From positions 15,685 to 79,684 of the IMG/VR virus record IMGVR_UViG_3300033550_000002: 64,000 bases of DNA; one strand, 5' to 3'. Positions within the stretch are counted from its first letter, which is position 1. Each line of letters opens with the position of its first letter. Origin of the DNA: a virus. Positions 38,335 through 44,593 of the stretch are shown here, piece after piece. The notes under the pieces are model-generated. The model worked only from the letters and a program-made list of their open reading frames with translations. It searched no databases and was not told the DNA's origin. The position numbers and the translations under genes are program-made.

Positions 38335-38712
38335 TCAGTCGGGCTTGTGCGCTTCGAGAACCGCGATGACGCCTTCCAGGGCCTCGTCGGGGTACCCGCG
38401 CATCGACCCCAGACCGTCGGAGCGAGTCGGCATCAGGCCCAGGTCGAAGATCCGGCCGAGCAGGGCCTCGCGCTTCCTGACGGCCGCGACCTCGGTCTTC
38501 GTGCGGAAGTACCGCGTGTAGCCGTAGTTCTTCTCCGTGTCCACGCGATCGGTCATCGAGAAGGCCGACTCTCGGCCACGCACCTCGATGTAGATGCGGC
38601 GGGTACCGATCCGGGTCACCTCGCAGTTGTCGTACTCACGGCCGTCGTAGACGACGACCTTGCTGCCGGGCCGCAGGACTTCCCCGCCGACCTTGAACTC
38701 TCGCTCCTTCAT
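38335..38712 (-). CDS. hypothetical protein
   Basis: GGAG RBS, upstream -10 TAGAAT. Confidence 0.6.
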   Translation of the reverse strand: MKEREFKVGGEVLRPGSKVVVYDGREYDNCEVTRIGTRRIYIEVRGRESAFSMTDRVDTEKNYGYTRYFRTKTEVAAVRKREALLGRIFDLGLMPTRSDGLGSMRGYPDEALEGVIAVLEAHKPD

Positions 38713-38824
38713 GCACTTCTCCGTTTCCTCAACTAACCCCATTCTAGCGAAAGTTGAGAACGCGGGCAAGGAGGGCACGAGAAGGGCCCCCCACCTCCGG
38801 AGAGGTGAGGGACCCAGGCGGGGC

Positions 38825-40399
38825 TCAGGTGAGCCACGGCCACTTCTCGTCGTACCCGGCCTCCAGCGCGAGCACCTGGGCGAAGACCTGGTCGGTCAGT
38901 CCGCCGAACTCGTACCAGCCCTTCAGGCGGGTGTCGATCACGGTCGAGGCGTACCCGACCGGACTGACGCCGTAGAGCTTCACGCCGTCCGGCACCGGCA
39001 GGCTCCCGACGCGGCACTGCATGTCCGAGATCACGAACACGCGGTCGTGGCCGTCGAGACGGTTGCGGATCGCGCCCGAGATGTTCGTGCCGTGGCCGAC
39101 CTCACCGGTCCGCTGGACGAAGTCGCGGGCCGCCGACAGGACGCCCTGGCCCGGCTTCACGTTGTGCCGGAACTCGCTGTCCGCGAAGCCGAACAGGTCC
39201 ACCCGGCCCTGGTTGCGCTGGGCCAGCGTGACGCCGAAGATCGAGGCGACCTCCGACATCATGACCGTCGACTTCTGCGACATCTTCGTGTAGGTCATCG
39301 ACGCCGAGGTGTCGATGAGCACGAGCGTGCGGCCCGGCAGCTCCGGGACGGACTTCAGCGAGCTGTTGATCGCGTCGTCCAGGGCCTGCTTCCAGCGGTC
39401 GCTCGGGGCCTCGCGGTACGCCGTGTAGAACCGGAACGGGAACTGACGGCTCTTCGCCACCTCGGCCGGGTCGGCCAGCCGGTCGGCCAGCGCGCGCGCC
39501 CGCTTCGGGTCGATACCTGCCTCGTCCATGTTCCGCAGGTTCCGCAGCGCGGCCATGTACGGCAGGTGCGGGGCCATGGCGTCCCAGACCTTCTTCGCGC
39601 CGACGCGCGCCTTCAGGTCCGAGACCGCGTTCTCCCACGTGATGCCCGCATCCGTGAAGGCGGAGCCGTCGGCGAGGGACGCGAGCTTGCGCTGGTCGTC
39701 CAGGCCGTACCAGCGCTTGCGGGCCGCGATCATCGGGACCGTCGAGATGTCGCCGTCGCCGTGGTGCCGCTCGTCGAGCAGGTACTTGAACAGGGCACCC
39801 TGCCAGTCGCCTTCACCGCGCTCGGTGCGCGGCTTCGGGTGGACCAGCTCCAGCACGTCCGCGAAGCGCAGGCCGCGCGCGTCGGAGTCCCACTTCAGCA
39901 CGTTCCGCTCGGTGAAGAGGCGGCGGATCGCCATCCCCAGACCGGCGCGGACCGCGTTCGGGAGCGCCCGGCCGAAGGTGAGCTGCCAGTACGCCAGGAA
40001 CTCGGTGATCTCCTCACCCCGCTGGATCACGGAGTCGATCAGCTCGGCGTTGCCGTCGTGCTGGCCCGCCTTGAGCCGGGCGCTGACCGCGTGCGCCGCC
40101 CCGGTCAGGGAAGCGGTGCGGATGTTCGCGTCCGAGCGCAGCCAGCGCAGCAGGCCGCGCAGCCACTCCCAGTCGCCGACCGCGTGCAGCTCCACGAGGT
40201 TGTTGTAGCGGGCGTCGCGGCTGGTGCCCTTCTCATGGAAGGTGTCCTGGCCGACGAGGTTCACGGCCGCGAGGCTGTACAGCTCGCCGCGCAGGCCGTG
40301 CCCGAAGGCCGGGGCTCCCTGGTGGTTCACCGTCGCGCCCTTGACGACGTCCTTCGGGCGTCCGGTCGCCCGGACACCTGCGTTGTTGAAGCGTGCCAT
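38825..40399 (-). CDS. Ro60/TROVE domain RNA-binding protein (Rsr-like)
   Basis: MARFN, R.DANIRT, LVHPKP, TWE, LPYMAALRNLRNM, SRQFPFRFYTAY, vWA LIDTSASM...ISDMQ. Confidence 0.95.
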   Translation of the reverse strand: MARFNNAGVRATGRPKDVVKGATVNHQGAPAFGHGLRGELYSLAAVNLVGQDTFHEKGTSRDARYNNLVELHAVGDWEWLRGLLRWLRSDANIRTASLTGAAHAVSARLKAGQHDGNAELIDSVIQRGEEITEFLAYWQLTFGRALPNAVRAGLGMAIRRLFTERNVLKWDSDARGLRFADVLELVHPKPRTERGEGDWQGALFKYLLDERHHGDGDISTVPMIAARKRWYGLDDQRKLASLADGSAFTDAGITWENAVSDLKARVGAKKVWDAMAPHLPYMAALRNLRNMDEAGIDPKRARALADRLADPAEVAKSRQFPFRFYTAYREAPSDRWKQALDDAINSSLKSVPELPGRTLVLIDTSASMTYTKMSQKSTVMMSEVASIFGVTLAQRNQGRVDLFGFADSEFRHNVKPGQGVLSAARDFVQRTGEVGHGTNISGAIRNRLDGHDRVFVISDMQCRVGSLPVPDGVKLYGVSPVGYASTVIDTRLKGWYEFGGLTDQVFAQVLALEAGYDEKWPWLT

Positions 40400-40414
40400 G
40401 GAACTTCTCCTCTC

Positions 40415-41176
40415 TCAGCCGATGTTCATGGTTCGCCGGTAGTCGGCGAAGCGGGCCTTGCGGATGACCGATCGGTCGGCGCTCCGGAAGACGATGCCTT
40501 CCGGCGAGCCGTGCCCCTTCTCGTCGAGTGCGACGCGGGTCTGGGGCAGGGTGTTGCTCAGGAACCGGTGGGTCCCGAAGTGGGTCTCGGGCATCTCGTA
40601 GCCCATCACGGTGCACAGGTGCGGCACGCGCGGGATGCCGGTCAGGCGGCTGACGTCGTCGAGCTGTTCGACCGACAGGAAGGTCTGGCCGCCGTTCTCA
40701 CGCCACCGGGAGATCGTTTCCCGGTCCCACTCGAAGGGCTGGGTGCCCTCCGTCAGGACGTCGAACATGCGGTGGCCGCGCGATCCGCTGCCCGTGTACT
40801 GCTTCGCCTGGCCGCCGATCTTCGAGCCGTAGACCTCCAGGTACACCGCGACCACGCCGAGTTCCGGGGACAGCTCCGAGATCTGGCACAGGCTCTCCGC
40901 GACGGGGCGCAGCTCGGTGACGATGTCGTGGCTGACGCCGGTCGACGGGACCACCCGGTCACCCTTCGCGTGCAGCAGCTCCTCGCGGGAGCCGATGAAG
41001 TAGTCACCGCCGGGGAGCAGGACGATGCGGCCGTTCGTGCCGTCGACCTTCTCGTAGCCGAACACCTCTCCGGTGAACGGTGTCACCTTGTCGGTGAGCC
41101 GACCCTTCTCGCCGAGGACGTGGTAGGTCTCGATCGATGGGTACTTCGTGACGGAGTTCAGGATTTCCAGGTTCAC
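40415..41176 (-). CDS. ATP-dependent RNA ligase (Rnl2-like nucleotidyltransferase)
   Basis: KYPSI, motif I EKVDGTN, III EVYG, IIIa FDV, IV EGIVFR, V RKAR..DY. Confidence 0.8.
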   Translation of the reverse strand: MNLEILNSVTKYPSIETYHVLGEKGRLTDKVTPFTGEVFGYEKVDGTNGRIVLLPGGDYFIGSREELLHAKGDRVVPSTGVSHDIVTELRPVAESLCQISELSPELGVVAVYLEVYGSKIGGQAKQYTGSGSRGHRMFDVLTEGTQPFEWDRETISRWRENGGQTFLSVEQLDDVSRLTGIPRVPHLCTVMGYEMPETHFGTHRFLSNTLPQTRVALDEKGHGSPEGIVFRSADRSVIRKARFADYRRTMNIG

Positions 41177-41195
41177 GGTTCTCTCCTTTTCCGGG

Positions 41196-41225
41196 AAAAC
41201 AAAAACCCCCTCCGACTGGAGGGGG
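41196..41225 (-). terminator. intrinsic terminator after Y RNA cluster
   Basis: - strand CCCCCTCC-AGTC-GGAGGGGG-TTTTTGTTTT. Confidence 0.8.
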
Positions 41226-41232
41226 CGCGATA

Positions 41233-41394
41233 TGCACAGACGTACCGGCCGGTTCACCAGAGCAACTGCGGTTTTTGGAGACCATTGCTCTACCAATTGA
41301 GCTACCCAGCTTTTCAAGGCCGGGACTGGAATTGAACCAGCAACCCACGGTTTGAAGTAACCGCCGTCTTCGCACCGGCCGGTGCGTCCGTGCA
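41233..41394 (-). ncRNA. Y RNA (YrlA-type) with permuted tRNA domain
   Basis: about 21-bp terminal stem with GGUGCGA/GGUGAACC Ro-site-like helix; T arm GCUGG-UUCAAUU-CCAGU precedes D arm GCUC-AAUUGGUA-GAGC. Confidence 0.85.
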
Positions 41395-41397
41395 CAT

Positions 41398-41567
41398 CAC
41401 AGGAATCCTGGAGCCGCCTGGTTCACCGAGATCGCGACGGGGAACGTTGCGCGTGCTGCCAATTACACTACCGGGCTTTCGCCTTCGCCTGGACTTGAAC
41501 CGGACTACGCCCTCCTGAAGGGGAAGTATCCGTCACTGTCGCACCAGACGACACCAGGATTCCTGTG
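41398..41567 (-). ncRNA. Y RNA (YrlA-type) with permuted tRNA domain
   Basis: CACAGGAAUCCUGG/CCAGGAUUCCUGUG stem, GGUGCGA/GGUGAACC, T loop GGUUCAAGUCC before D arm GUGUAAUUGGCAGCAC. Confidence 0.8.
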
Positions 41568-41570
41568 AAT

Positions 41571-41650
41571 TGCGCCCCCCGGTTCACCGGAACGACTGCG
41601 GAGAGTTTCATTACCAGTGAAGTATCCGCTGTCTTCGCACCGGGGGTGCA
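41571..41650 (-). ncRNA. minimal Y RNA lacking tRNA domain
   Basis: same GGUGCGAAGAC.GCGG.UACUUC and CCGCAGU.G.UC.GGUGAACC motifs, closed by a short loop. Confidence 0.75.
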
Positions 41651-41656
41651 GGAAAA

Positions 41657-41686
41657 ACATTACGGGATGCTGCGACGAGGTCGCAA
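41657..41686 (-). promoter_or_regulatory. sigma70/HrdB-type promoter for Y RNA cluster
   Basis: TTGCGA-18 nt-TAATGT, 6 nt before first Y RNA. Confidence 0.65.
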
Positions 41687-41691
41687 CTCCT

Positions 41692-42165
41692 TTACGCGTA
41701 GACCGCGCAGAGCAGCCAGGAGGCCGTCGTCTGCTGCGGGGTCATCTCCAGCCGCTCCAGCGCCCGGCTCAGCCTGCCCTCCGCGAGGAGGTACTGCGCC
41801 GGGGTGAACGTGAGCGGGTCGATGGCCTGGGGAACGGTGCCGGAAGCCTTGAAGGTCATGCCGGAGGCGACCAGGGAGATGTGCGTGTACTCCAGGTGCC
41901 CGGTCCAGCAGATGTCGATGCCGAGGTGCTTCGCCATGAGCGCGGACAGCGAGTACTCGGCGGAGTCGATCTCCTCCTGGCTCACGTTGCCCGCGCGCAG
42001 GAGCCGCCTGCGCATCTCGTTCTCGTAGTCCGACTCGATGTCGGCCATCCAGTGGCCGTCGAGAAGGCTGCCGTACTCGTCGACCTCGTCGACCTTCCAG
42101 GAGCCCTCGTCGGGACAGCCCAGGTAGAACCCGTACGCGAGGCGCGCACTCGACCCCATCGGCAT
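41692..42165 (-). CDS. hypothetical protein
   Basis: 157-aa ORF, GAGGGG RBS. Confidence 0.6.
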   Translation of the reverse strand: MPMGSSARLAYGFYLGCPDEGSWKVDEVDEYGSLLDGHWMADIESDYENEMRRRLLRAGNVSQEEIDSAEYSLSALMAKHLGIDICWTGHLEYTHISLVASGMTFKASGTVPQAIDPLTFTPAQYLLAEGRLSRALERLEMTPQQTTASWLLCAVYA

Positions 42166-42343
42166 ACCATTTCCCCTCTCCGGAACAAGACCGCGCGTCA
42201 GTACGCGCCGGACTCCTCGTACATCATCGTGATCTTCTGCTCCCGGTAGGCTTCCAGCTCCTCCGGGGACAGGAAGGTCATGCCGTCCTCGATCGCGATA
42301 AAATCGGCCGTGTCGGCCATCTTTTCTTCTCCCTTCCCTTGCG

Positions 42344-42461
42344 TGTACACGATGGGATTCGAACCCACGGACCGCACGGAATCACCAGTTCCGCCCGGTC
42401 GCCTGCCCCTGTCGCTGGGACGACTTCAGCAGGCACCCTTTGGCCACTCGGGCACGTGTAC
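42344..42461 (-). ncRNA. non-canonical tRNA-like RNA (expanded anticodon loop, very long variable arm)
   Basis: acceptor GUACACG/CGUGUAC, D arm CCCGAGUGGCCAAAGGG, anticodon stem GCCUG/CAGGC, T arm GUGGG-UUCGAAU-CCCAU. Confidence 0.7.
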
Positions 42462-42570
42462 TGCCGGACCTCGAACGGTTACCGGCCCAGATTCCGCCTA
42501 CGGGGGTCAATGTGGCCATACGGCTCATCTACGCGGAATCAAGGAGGCTCTTCTGCCACCCCCACCTCAG

Positions 42571-42641
42571 AACCTGTGACGGGATTTGAACCCGCGCCGC
42601 CGACACCCTCACGTCGGAGTGCTGCGCTACACCACACAGGC
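42571..42641 (-). ncRNA. tRNA-like RNA with 8-nt anticodon loop
   Basis: acceptor GCCUGUG/CACAGGU, CCGAC-GUGAGGGU-GUCGG, T arm GCGGG-UUCAAAU-CCCGU; D loop lacks GG. Confidence 0.65.
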
Positions 42642-42753
42642 CGGAATCCAGGAGCGGAAGCGTGGAGCCGCCGCTGTGCCTTCCTGGATTCCTTGTTGGT
42701 TCAAAAAGGACCGAGGGCTGTGCTGTGCCAACAGGGTGCAACCCCCGGTCCAG

Positions 42754-42827
42754 TCGACGGAGAAGGACTTGAACCTTCGACCTCTGGTTTATCAGACCAG
42801 TGCTCTACCGAACTGAGCTATCCGTCG
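42754..42827 (-). tRNA. tRNA-Ile(GAT)
   Basis: canonical cloverleaf CGACGGA/UCCGUCG, loop CU-GAU-AA, T loop UUCAAGU; no encoded CCA. Confidence 0.92.
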
Positions 42828-42938
42828 TTCCTCGCCAGGGGTGGTCGGATCACCCCCGGCGAAGGGTGCGCCGAGGAGGGCCAAATCAACCTCGGTGCGG
42901 GTGTTCTCAGGTGGTCGGACACCCTCGAACTAGTTATT

Positions 42939-42968
42939 ACGTTACCGGAGTTGAGGGCAGGGTGTCAA
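42939..42968 (-). promoter_or_regulatory. sigma70/HrdB-type promoter for tRNA/ncRNA cluster
   Basis: TTGACA-18 nt-TAACGT. Confidence 0.75.
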
Positions 42969-42978
42969 CTTCCTGCGA

Positions 42979-44286
42979 TCAGACCGCGAGGCGGAAGTAC
43001 TCCCCGTCCGGCTTCAGGATTCCGTCGCGGGTGAAGGACCGCAGGAATCCCGTCGCCTGCTGGGTCCCGCAGCCCGTCCAGGAAGCCAGGATCTCCGGCG
43101 TCCAGAAGCCGTCCGGCTGGCTCCTGAGCGCCCGCAGGGCGACGTCCCGGGGAAACTGCCCGACACCGTTCTTCGGGTACGCCAGGAGGCGCACCATGTC
43201 GTCGGTGACCGTCCAGGTGCGGATCAGGTTCCGGCCGTGCACGTTCAGGTACCCGTGCCCCCGGAAGCGCGTTCCGCGCGGGAGCGTGTGCGGCTCCACG
43301 CCGGAGCCGTCGCCGAGCACCGTCGTCGTGTTCTGCGAGGTGTTCACCCGCAGGCAGAAGGAGTAGTCGAAGTTCGAGCGGATGCCCGAGGTGATACCCC
43401 GGTCGTCTCCCGTGCGCAGCGGGTTCTGCGTCATCCACATCAGGATGACCTCGCGGGAACGCCCCTGGCTGGACAGCTCGGTGAGCTTCTGCATCACCGA
43501 CTTGTCCGGGCCCTCCTGGAAGGTGTACTCCTCACCGTCCTGGTTCTTCGGGGCCTTGCCGCGCCGCTTGTCCTCCTCGATCACCGCGCAGAGGACCGAG
43601 TACCCCTCGTCGATGACGATGAGCTTGCGGGGCCCGAGCTGGAAGTCCCACTTGCTCAGGCCCTTCTTGGCCATCAGGGCGGCCCGCTCTTCCATCTTGG
43701 CGTGGGCGGACTCGATGGCCTCGATGATCTCCTCGTGGGCGACCGCGCAGCGGCAGATGCCGCGCCAGACCGTGGCCTCCTCGCCCTTCCCGTCGATGAA
43801 CCAGTCCAGCTCCTCGTCGGGGTGCACGACGGCGCGGGCCATCAGGGACCGCGTGGACCAGCTCTTGCCGGAGCCCGAGGCCCCGCCGACCAGGATGCGC
43901 TCGTTGCGCGGTACGTCGACCTCCTCGCCCGTGACGGTGTCGCGCCCCAGGGTCGTGATGCCGGGGTGCCAGAACATGTCCAGCTCGTCGGTCACGTACC
44001 GGGTCCGGATCGCGTAGAGCACTCGCGAGGACCGGCCGGAGGGCGACAGGTCGCTCAGGTCGGCGTCGAGGACGTCGAGCATGACGCGCAGCTTCTGGTG
44101 CCCGCGCTCCAGCTCGGTCAGGGTGTCGCGGTCGTTGAGTCCGAGGGTCGCCACGACCCCGGACTCGGTCAGGGCGGCGTTGACCAGGCTCACGCCACGG
44201 AAGCCGCGCTTGCGGGACTCGACTTCCCACCAGGCGGGCTGGAGGAGGTCGAGGAGGCGCAGTTCCTCATCCGTCGGCTTCAGCAC
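42979..44286 (-). CDS. TraB-like FtsK/SpoIIIE DNA translocase
   Basis: ILVGGASGSGKS, IDGKG, IVIDE, QGRS, TQNP, IRSNF; short C-terminal wHTH. Confidence 0.85.
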   Translation of the reverse strand: MLKPTDEELRLLDLLQPAWWEVESRKRGFRGVSLVNAALTESGVVATLGLNDRDTLTELERGHQKLRVMLDVLDADLSDLSPSGRSSRVLYAIRTRYVTDELDMFWHPGITTLGRDTVTGEEVDVPRNERILVGGASGSGKSWSTRSLMARAVVHPDEELDWFIDGKGEEATVWRGICRCAVAHEEIIEAIESAHAKMEERAALMAKKGLSKWDFQLGPRKLIVIDEGYSVLCAVIEEDKRRGKAPKNQDGEEYTFQEGPDKSVMQKLTELSSQGRSREVILMWMTQNPLRTGDDRGITSGIRSNFDYSFCLRVNTSQNTTTVLGDGSGVEPHTLPRGTRFRGHGYLNVHGRNLIRTWTVTDDMVRLLAYPKNGVGQFPRDVALRALRSQPDGFWTPEILASWTGCGTQQATGFLRSFTRDGILKPDGEYFRLAV

Positions 44287-44593
44287 GGCGCTCCTCCGGG
44301 GTGACGTCGATGAAGGGCTCCGTGTGCAGGCGCAGGACCAGGCCGGTCTCGACCGCGATGTAGGCGCTGTACGGGGGCACGTGCTGGCAGATGGCGGCGG
44401 CCCTGTCGAGGGCGTCACGGCCCTCCAGGCCGTCCCGGAGGAACCACACGGCCATCGTGTCGGCCGGTCCGAGACCGAGCGACAGGGCGGCGTTGTGCGG
44501 GTTCGTGGCGAGAACGGCGTCCCCGCTGTAGACGTTGTAGGTCAGGTCGCGGCCCCTTCGCCGCGCCTTCACCGCGTAGTACTGGTTGAGCAT
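44267..44593 (-). CDS. hypothetical protein upstream of TraB-like gene
   Basis: AAAGGA RBS; overlaps next start. Confidence 0.55.
   Translation of the reverse strand: MLNQYYAVKARRRGRDLTYNVYSGDAVLATNPHNAALSLGLGPADTMAVWFLRDGLEGRDALDRAAAICQHVPPYSAYIAVETGLVLRLHTEPFIDVTPEERRAEADG

Follow-up and report, generated by a model that had tools for sequence, protein, structure and literature searches.

The window analyzed here is a 64,000-nt stretch of DNA, positions 15685-79684 of the 79,684-bp IMG/VR virus record IMGVR_UViG_3300033550_000002 (67% G+C, an estimated ~42% complete). Between window positions 38825 and 42968 lies a block of RNA and protein genes, all on the minus strand: three predicted Y RNAs with a promoter and a terminator, an ATP-dependent RNA ligase, the RNA-binding protein Ro60 and, further upstream, a tRNA-Ile with two tRNA-like RNAs (Table 1). 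A preliminary description of the sequence had named these elements and called them a self-contained RNA repair module on a mobile element. Every element is present, at or within a few bases of the position it gave, and we regard the identity of the parts as nearly certain.

The closest named relatives are Streptomyces phages with genomes of 184-200 kb, so the region is phage DNA and neither a plasmid nor an integrative element. The locus lies on a phage genome fragment, and ‘mobile element’ was a misnomer. Part of the stretch matches Kradal, Satis, Quantum and EhyElimayoE at ~74% nucleotide identity, with Kela, JustBecause and Frankenweenie at a greater distance. Judged by these matches, the window is a fragment of a ~185-kb Streptomyces phage genome related to Satis, Kradal, Kela and Frankenweenie. 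A related-locus search with the Ro60 protein alone as query returned nothing. Searching with the 33-nt promoter pattern described below added four viral and five metagenome contigs to four named phages, for 14 loci in total. Near-identical DNA is present in 17 sequencing runs that contain at least half of the sampled words of 38825-42968, and all 20 matching runs come from 11 studies, including soil, plant, groundwater and invertebrate-gut samples. The full 4.1-kb stretch, ligase included, is colinear in long contigs of two other samples, with 12 and 59 differences.

Covariation and a shared architecture identify the three units as Y RNAs, a call made at the level of sequence. Y1, Y2 and Y3 have in common a basal handle and an invariant CGG(U/A)UACUUC box, and the CGAA motif is found in the window's Y1 and Y3. 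Compensatory changes affect 18 of the 40 consensus pairs of Y3, where 98% of alignment cells are paired compared with 32-43% when the 3' partners are slid. For Y2 they affect 7 of 27 pairs, with 97% paired compared with 28-47%. None of 500 shuffles reached these values for Y3 or for Y2. Y1 has 21 consensus pairs, three with compensatory change. The Rfam YrlA model (RF02553) matches Y3 alone, over the full model with a local E-value of 4.6e-7, at 40.8 bits against a gathering threshold of 69; all actinophage matches are likewise below threshold. Y3 has the arrangement that defines YrlA structurally, with T arm, acceptor-like stem and D arm inside a basal stem, ~850 nt upstream of Ro60.

The D arm and adjoining stem of Y3 (33 nt, window 41273-41305, minus strand) match contigs from other organisms in read data at 90% or higher, and several of those contigs run on into T-arm-like sequence, consistent with tRNA genes. 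The Y3 module thus closely copies a real tRNA. GenBank annotations miscall parts of the Y array as a tRNA-Cys in JustBecause (L007 3335-3405) and as a 91-nt tRNA-Pro in Frankenweenie (L006 4245-4335); these are tRNA-like modules of Y RNAs, not tRNAs.

The Y RNA promoter is a 33-nt pattern that is nearly invariant across 14 of 14 loci. The promoter-like site before the tRNA cluster keeps TTGAC and a downstream box in five phages. A strict sigma-70 consensus scan flags neither, so of the two promoters proposed earlier the calls rest on conservation across phages, which is very strong for the Y promoter, and not on the scan. The terminator is kept, with compensatory changes, in all relatives, and three Y units plus terminator are present in all 12 loci for which the array could be read completely. 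Ribosome-binding sites precede the ligase, Ro60 and ProQ_C-like genes, none of which has a visible promoter of its own. The ProQ_C-like gene lies beside Ro60 in all six relatives with downstream DNA (tblastn), and its product may add another RNA-binding component to the operon. The conserved core, whose layout recurs in the 14 loci, is the promoter, three Y RNAs, terminator, Ro60 and ProQ_C-like gene.

Ro60 matches the TROVE profile well above cut-off, bearing out the earlier assignment. Its AlphaFold2 model (predicted local distance difference test, pLDDT, 87.6) is a ring of HEAT-like repeats closed by the vWA domain. Full-length Foldseek matches are Xenopus Ro60 (template modeling, TM, score 0.76), Thermus phage phiLo Ro60 (TM 0.62) and Deinococcus radiodurans Rsr; the sequence match to phiLo Ro60 has an E-value of 1.2e-25. 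The MIDAS motif (metal ion-dependent adhesion site), DxSxS...T...D, is intact, with D363, S365, S367, T438 and D459 invariant in 30 homologs. The closest cellular homologs are actinomycete proteins at 45-48% identity.

The ligase gene lies directly after the terminator. Its start is a GTG at 41176, preceded by the ribosome-binding site AAGGAGA. The longest open reading frame (40415-41395) was dropped, since it would cross Y3 and the terminator. The gap to Ro60 is exactly 15 nt, as first described, and holds GAGAGGAGA, the Ro60 ribosome-binding site. The RNA_ligase profile match and a full set of catalytic motifs confirm a nucleotidyltransferase, with no variation in motifs I, III, IIIa, IV and V among 30 homologs (K43 in EKVDGTN, E114, F138-D139, E226-G227 and K240/R242). 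The AlphaFold2 model (pLDDT 92.5) aligns with the nucleotidyltransferase domains of NgrRnl and T4 Rnl2 over ~192 residues (VIA-align Z-scores 16.9 and 16.6, root-mean-square deviation 3.2). Weaker structural matches are REL1 (Z 14.9), archaeal Rnl3 (12-14) and Rnl1 (12). Identity to Rnl2/Rnl5-type enzymes is only 15-18%, and phmmer against PDB sequences found nothing. Sequence and model together predict an intact lysine-adenylating, ATP-type enzyme that joins 3'-OH to 5'-phosphate. The partner ligase is indeed not RtcB, as had been noted: neither RtcB (PF01139) nor RtcA (PF01137) has a match in the window's contig or complete relatives (RtcR was not searched for).

The ligase had been described as Rnl2-like. 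The ATP type and the fold agree with this, but the signature C-terminal domain of Rnl2 is absent: the protein ends 11 residues past motif V and aligns to Rnl2 residues 1-233 only. The N-terminal OB-like domain of Rnl5 is absent as well, with ~40 residues before motif I and alignment to NgrRnl 135-334 only. Lacking both domains, the enzyme is assigned to neither family. The isolated nucleotidyltransferase domain of T4 Rnl2 self-adenylylates and seals pre-adenylylated nicks and is poor at the full reaction, so an RNA-binding helper for the phage enzyme is conceivable.

Table 1. Features of the Ro60/Y-RNA locus and its flanks (window coordinates)
Feature	Position	Strand	Basis and remarks
Y RNA promoter	41654-41686	-	TTGCGA, 18-nt spacer, TAATGT
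Y RNA 1 (predicted)	41575-41647	-	Short stem-loop, YrlB-like, without tRNA module; fold z-score -2.5
Y RNA 2 (predicted)	41414-41551	-	Basal stem with degenerate tRNA-like module (T arm)
Y RNA 3 (predicted)	41245-41382	-	YrlA-like: basal stem, T arm, acceptor-like stem, D arm; fold z-score -3.8
Intrinsic terminator closing Y array	41205-41226	-	9-bp GC-rich stem and T run
ATP-dependent RNA ligase (253 aa, nucleotidyltransferase domain only)	40415-41176	-	PF09414, 41.6 bits (cut-off 27); PHROG 548
Ro60 (TROVE and vWA with MIDAS site)	38825-40399	-	PF05731, 62.5 bits (cut-off 23); PHROG 850, 4.5e-40
ProQ C-terminal-like domain protein	38335-38778	-	PF24203, 2.9e-13, full profile; directly downstream of Ro60
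tRNA-Ile(GAU), canonical	42754-42827	-	ARAGORN and Rfam tRNA, 75.1 bits
tRNA-like RNA 2 (8-nt anticodon loop)	42571-42641	-	Rfam tRNA, 43.9 bits; ARAGORN four-base anticodon ‘gagg’
tRNA-like RNA 3 (type-II tRNA shape)	42343-42461	-	Long variable arm, extended ‘anticodon’ arm
Promoter-like site before tRNA cluster	42939..42968	-	TTGACA, 18-nt spacer, TAACGT; read from sequence
40-aa open reading frame	42199-42320	-	tblastn: 10 related loci, ~60% identity
157-aa open reading frame	41692-42165	-	Just upstream of Y promoter; tblastn: 11 related loci, 29-33% identity
FtsK-like open reading frame	42979-44418	-	PF01580; upstream of tRNA-cluster promoter

The best explanation of the locus as a whole, which we favor by a little, is a Ro60/Y-RNA operon of a large Streptomyces phage into which an optional RNA ligase was inserted. 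One precursor would be cut into Y RNAs, which would bind Ro60 through their common basal handle, and with read-through of the terminator, Y RNA would be made in large excess over protein. By analogy with Deinococcus, Salmonella and phiLo, the Ro/Y particle would act on structured or damaged RNA and could dock on host polynucleotide phosphorylase (PNPase). The tRNA-like modules may attract factors that handle tRNA, or shield the RNAs. In phages that have it, the ligase would be co-expressed and would reseal 3'-OH/5'-phosphate nicks in structured RNAs such as tRNAs. The particle may aid it and could supply the RNA-binding surface that the ligase lacks. That the ligase cooperates functionally with Ro/Y is, in our judgment, nearly an even question, tilting slightly toward no, and a counter-defense role of the operon against tRNA cleavage is doubtful.

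Several observations weigh against a repair role shared by the ligase and the Ro/Y particle. The first concerns RNA ends. No PF13671 kinase, PF08645 polynucleotide kinase phosphatase or PF13563 2H esterase was found in the window's contig (G000, 42% complete) or in the complete ligase-bearing relatives G002 (100% complete) and Kela. Because an ATP-type ligase needs 3'-OH and 5'-phosphate, ends with cyclic phosphate and 5'-OH could not be mended by phage genes alone; on this gene content, sealing of the usual anticodon-nuclease cuts would not be possible without other help. The second concerns the distribution of the ligase, which is absent from eight of the 12 assessable relatives, where Ro60 directly follows the terminator. 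The complete genomes of Kradal, Frankenweenie and G001 lack PF09414 and RtcB altogether; such ligase-free genomes still have Ro60 with its three Y RNAs, and Ro/Y therefore works without the ligase. Among the best 80 viral Ro60 loci the ligase occurs in one, and of 80 bacterial ligase loci, 76 lack a Ro60 within 8 kb and have no further neighbor in common. The actinophages GiJojo, BRock and Atuin carry Ro60 within large tRNA arrays, with sub-threshold YrlA matches and without the ligase, so that closeness of Ro60 to tRNA genes is general. Finally, usable RNA evidence was not found in the run matches, and the sole matching RNA library may contain DNA. This oligo-dT RNA-seq run gives a few short contigs at 95-99% identity to parts of the ligase, Ro60 and small-ORF (open reading frame) regions, for which DNA carry-over is possible, and its Y RNA coverage consists only of tRNA-like fragments of other organisms. 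With no end-healing enzyme found and the ligase missing in most relatives and alone in most bacterial loci, ‘self-contained repair module’ is too strong and is not upheld. The ligase is an optional add-on, not a core part of the operon.

These observations raise a rival account, in which Ro60/Y acts only through host exoribonucleases, in an assembly with PNPase like the Ro60-Y RNA-PNPase complex (RYPER) shown for phiLo, and the ligase is an accessory gene with no relation to it that came to lie where insertion is tolerated, between terminator and Ro60. Complete relatives retaining Ro60 and three Y RNAs without a ligase fit this account, as does a ligase family that is mostly solitary in bacteria and stands alone on Streptomyces plasmids, and a phage Ro60 with its Y RNAs binds host PNPase in vitro (PMC12135203). 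Where the ligase does adjoin Ro60, the pattern fits less well. It lies between terminator and Ro60 in four of the 12 assessable relatives (the window, Kela, JustBecause and L012), within the operon and 15 nt from Ro60 in the window. Several phage lineages show the adjacency too, not all in one arrangement: in IMG/VR, L114 and L109 have the same Y-ligase-Ro order as the window, L102 has a YrlA and the ligase followed after ~500 nt by Ro60, and in L103 the ligase is 3 kb from a YrlA-Ro60 pair. It appears separately in four Dactylosporangium chromosomes, in which Ro60 and a YrlA match lie ~300 bp from the ligase, divergently oriented, among housekeeping genes (L086 6168-8732, also L082, L087 and L089). 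In addition, the ligases of the phages group in a single clade and have diverged in step with Ro60. Weighing both sides, we consider the exoribonuclease-only account rather unlikely, though a serious candidate.

In 50,697 phage records a Ro60 relative occurs in 65 and this ligase in six, with both only in Kela and JustBecause. IMG/VR holds the ligase at 48 loci, with Ro60 within 6 kb at four of them; for comparison, Ro60 relatives lie at no fewer than 357 places in 2.9 million viral contigs, and this speaks for the linkage. Ligase relatives occur in 316 species (one genome per species), mostly actinomycetes and some cyanobacteria. Thus the linkage drawn in the preliminary description does recur in phage lineages and Dactylosporangium, but the ligase is rare among the best viral Ro60 loci. 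In a tree of 204 ligases, the window enzyme, the Kela type and several metagenome sequences from long contigs form one 18-row clade (Shimodaira-Hasegawa-like approximate likelihood ratio test, SH-aLRT, 92), and the bacterial sequences cluster roughly by taxon. Ligase and Ro60 identities to the window drop jointly across lineages (67/89%, 54/50% and 46/34%), which fits an old linkage followed by losses. Our reading is that the ligase was captured once by this phage group, put into the Ro operon and later lost several times, and that its linkage to Ro60/Y is far commoner than chance would allow, yet leaves the ligase dispensable. Given the Y-ligase-Ro order in several phage lineages and its rearranged form in Dactylosporangium, some functional link between ligase and Ro/Y is likely.

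Other neighbors of the ligase family were recorded in the same loci. In L087 a TRAM-domain RNA methyltransferase comes just after the ligase; its ORF family is present in 5 of 80 bacterial loci and directly follows the ligase in three more of them. A Planctomycetaceae metagenome-assembled genome contig (L081 1988-4478) has an array of 10 tRNA genes, then the ligase, and tRNAs (up to 31) lie within 6 kb in 14 of the 48 viral ligase loci.

The tRNA-Ile is canonical, and its position is unchanged in Kradal, Kela, JustBecause and Frankenweenie. In the related phages tRNA-like RNA 2 keeps its acceptor, D and T arms and varies in the anticodon arm: Kradal has a His-like loop of 7 nt, and in Kela and Frankenweenie ~22 nt that include a mini-hairpin are inserted. 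tRNA-like RNA 3 is undetected by ARAGORN and Rfam. In an alignment of nine loci, pairing holds in 96% of its cells, with compensatory change at 21 of 37 pairs; 0 of 500 shuffles match this. It has no 7-nt anticodon loop. In its place the arm carries a 7-bp stem that does not vary, a 3x3 internal loop, a 4-bp stem with covariation and the loop UCCCAG, and this invariance suggests a specific protein-binding site. By their predicted folds, neither RNA looks like a decoder. We also considered whether tRNA-like RNA 3 could be a tRNA whose intron the ligase splices, and rejected this, since the RNA is equally conserved in ligase-free phages and its two bulges are opposed, not staggered as in the bulge-helix-bulge splice motif. 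The tRNA-Ile and both odd RNAs always adjoin the Ro region. Two further sub-threshold Rfam matches near Ro60 were seen, a manA RNA in BRock (L100 5579-5742; 49.7 bits, threshold 55.2) and a cspA thermoregulator in the IMG/VR contig L102 (9030-9394; 50.6 bits, threshold 78).

These RNAs invite a decoy explanation. The Y2 and Y3 modules and the two non-decoding tRNA-like RNAs would soak up host tRNA-cutting nucleases or tRNA-binding defense proteins, Ro60 would shield them from exonucleases, and the ligase, where present, would mend nicked decoys or tRNAs. Acceptor, D and T arms kept under covariation, with anticodon arms that are non-canonical and change between relatives, are what such mimics would look like, and the likeness of the 33-nt Y3 stretch to real tRNA genes of other organisms points the same way. 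The RNAs also stand apart from the main tRNA cluster: complete relatives have about ten ordinary tRNAs in a separate cluster ~35 kb away. The idea that a YrlA inhibits an anticodon nuclease has been raised before (PMC7790460). No nuclease target is known for the present RNAs, however, and the invariant stem and loop of tRNA-like RNA 3 fit a specific protein-binding site better than a mimic of many anticodons. We judge the decoy explanation improbable. Only slightly better placed, and still unlikely, is a stronger form of the cooperation described above, in which the Ro60/Y particle would be the missing RNA-binding and targeting module of the ligase. It would be a joining counterpart of the Ro-Y-PNPase degradation machine that reseals nicked tRNAs or tRNA-like RNAs in the course of an infection; the non-decoding tRNA-like RNAs would serve it as additional clients or as decoys.

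Two small ORFs complete the region. The 40-aa ORF has no family match (Pfam included). The 157-aa ORF has no match in Pfam, PHROG or NCBIfam, and it directly precedes the Y RNA promoter in all 11 related loci (tblastn). An NCBIfam search with four locus proteins gave no match.

Ro60 with an adjoining YrlA was established in bacteria and phages by bioinformatics (Chen et al., 2014; PMC4201824). Like these Ro60-YrlA/YrlB systems, which also occur in actinobacteria and their phages, the window has a TROVE and vWA Ro60 with Y RNAs just upstream, one of them a short hairpin and another with a long basal stem that bears T arm, acceptor-like stem and D arm. Unlike them, it has three tandem Y RNAs with one promoter and terminator, a sub-threshold YrlA score, the CGG(U/A)UACUUC box in all units and an ATP-dependent ligase within the operon. 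The tethering of Ro60 to PNPase by a Y RNA (RYPER) is known for Deinococcus, Salmonella and phiLo (PMC4201824, PMC12135203). For phiLo, structure and binding have been determined, and in vitro its Ro60 associates with host PNPase as well as with the Y RNAs from upstream (PMC12135203; PDB 9KOP, 9L5Y). The phiLo and window systems share a phage Ro60 ring matching in sequence and fold, several Y RNAs directly upstream and the CGAA motif (window Y1 and Y3), which was used to recognize the phiLo Y RNAs (PMC12135203). Unlike phiLo, with its Yrl1/Yrl2, the window has a ligase, which is not mentioned in the text of the phiLo paper, and an actinomycete host.

Joining enzymes have also been tied to Ro60. 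Ro60 and Y RNAs lie beside RtcB (PMC7790460), and in the Salmonella rsr-yrlBA-rtcBA operon, as in the window, an RNA ligase is encoded together with Ro60 and Y RNAs; the Salmonella operon is linked to tRNA damage (PMC7790460). The chemistry differs: Salmonella RtcB joins 3'-phosphate or cyclic phosphate to 5'-OH, whereas the window enzyme is of the lysine-adenylating, 3'-OH/5'-phosphate type. The window phage, unlike the Salmonella operon, has no RtcA match, and its ligase is optional. The ligase shares the nucleotidyltransferase fold and all catalytic motifs with the nick sealers T4 Rnl2 and Naegleria/Deinococcus Rnl5, unlike which it has neither accessory domain (Rnl2 C-terminal, Rnl5 N-terminal). 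T4 Pnkp and Rnl1, which repair tRNA cut by the anticodon nuclease PrrC, offer a parallel, in that a phage encodes an ATP-dependent RNA ligase with a possible connection to broken tRNA. Unlike that pair, no polynucleotide kinase-phosphatase was found here, and the window ligase is nearer to Rnl2/Rnl5 than to Rnl1 (Z 12). A jumbo-phage survey reports a TROVE protein in some phages that also carry ATP-dependent RNA ligases (PMC7824862). No ATP-dependent ligase inside a Ro/Y operon was found in the literature searched, a search outside which Burroughs and Aravind (2016) and Sim et al. (2020) fall.

A phage Ro60 with upstream Y RNAs is thus already known; what is new here is a facultative minimal ligase and conserved tRNA mimics. 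The function of Ro60/Y in bacteria and phages is largely open, with known links to degradation through PNPase and, by gene neighborhood, to repair through RtcB. The ligase is a minimal member of the Rnl2/Rnl5 fold, present in 316 mostly actinomycete species and so far uncharacterized. The two covarying tRNA-shaped RNAs without standard anticodon loops extend the list of phage tRNA mimics. Cultured relatives provide a natural presence/absence series, with the ligase in the Ro operon of Kela and JustBecause and none in Satis, Kradal and Frankenweenie. Since Kela and Frankenweenie were isolated on one strain, S. scabiei RL-34, cooperation between Ro/Y and the ligase is directly testable.

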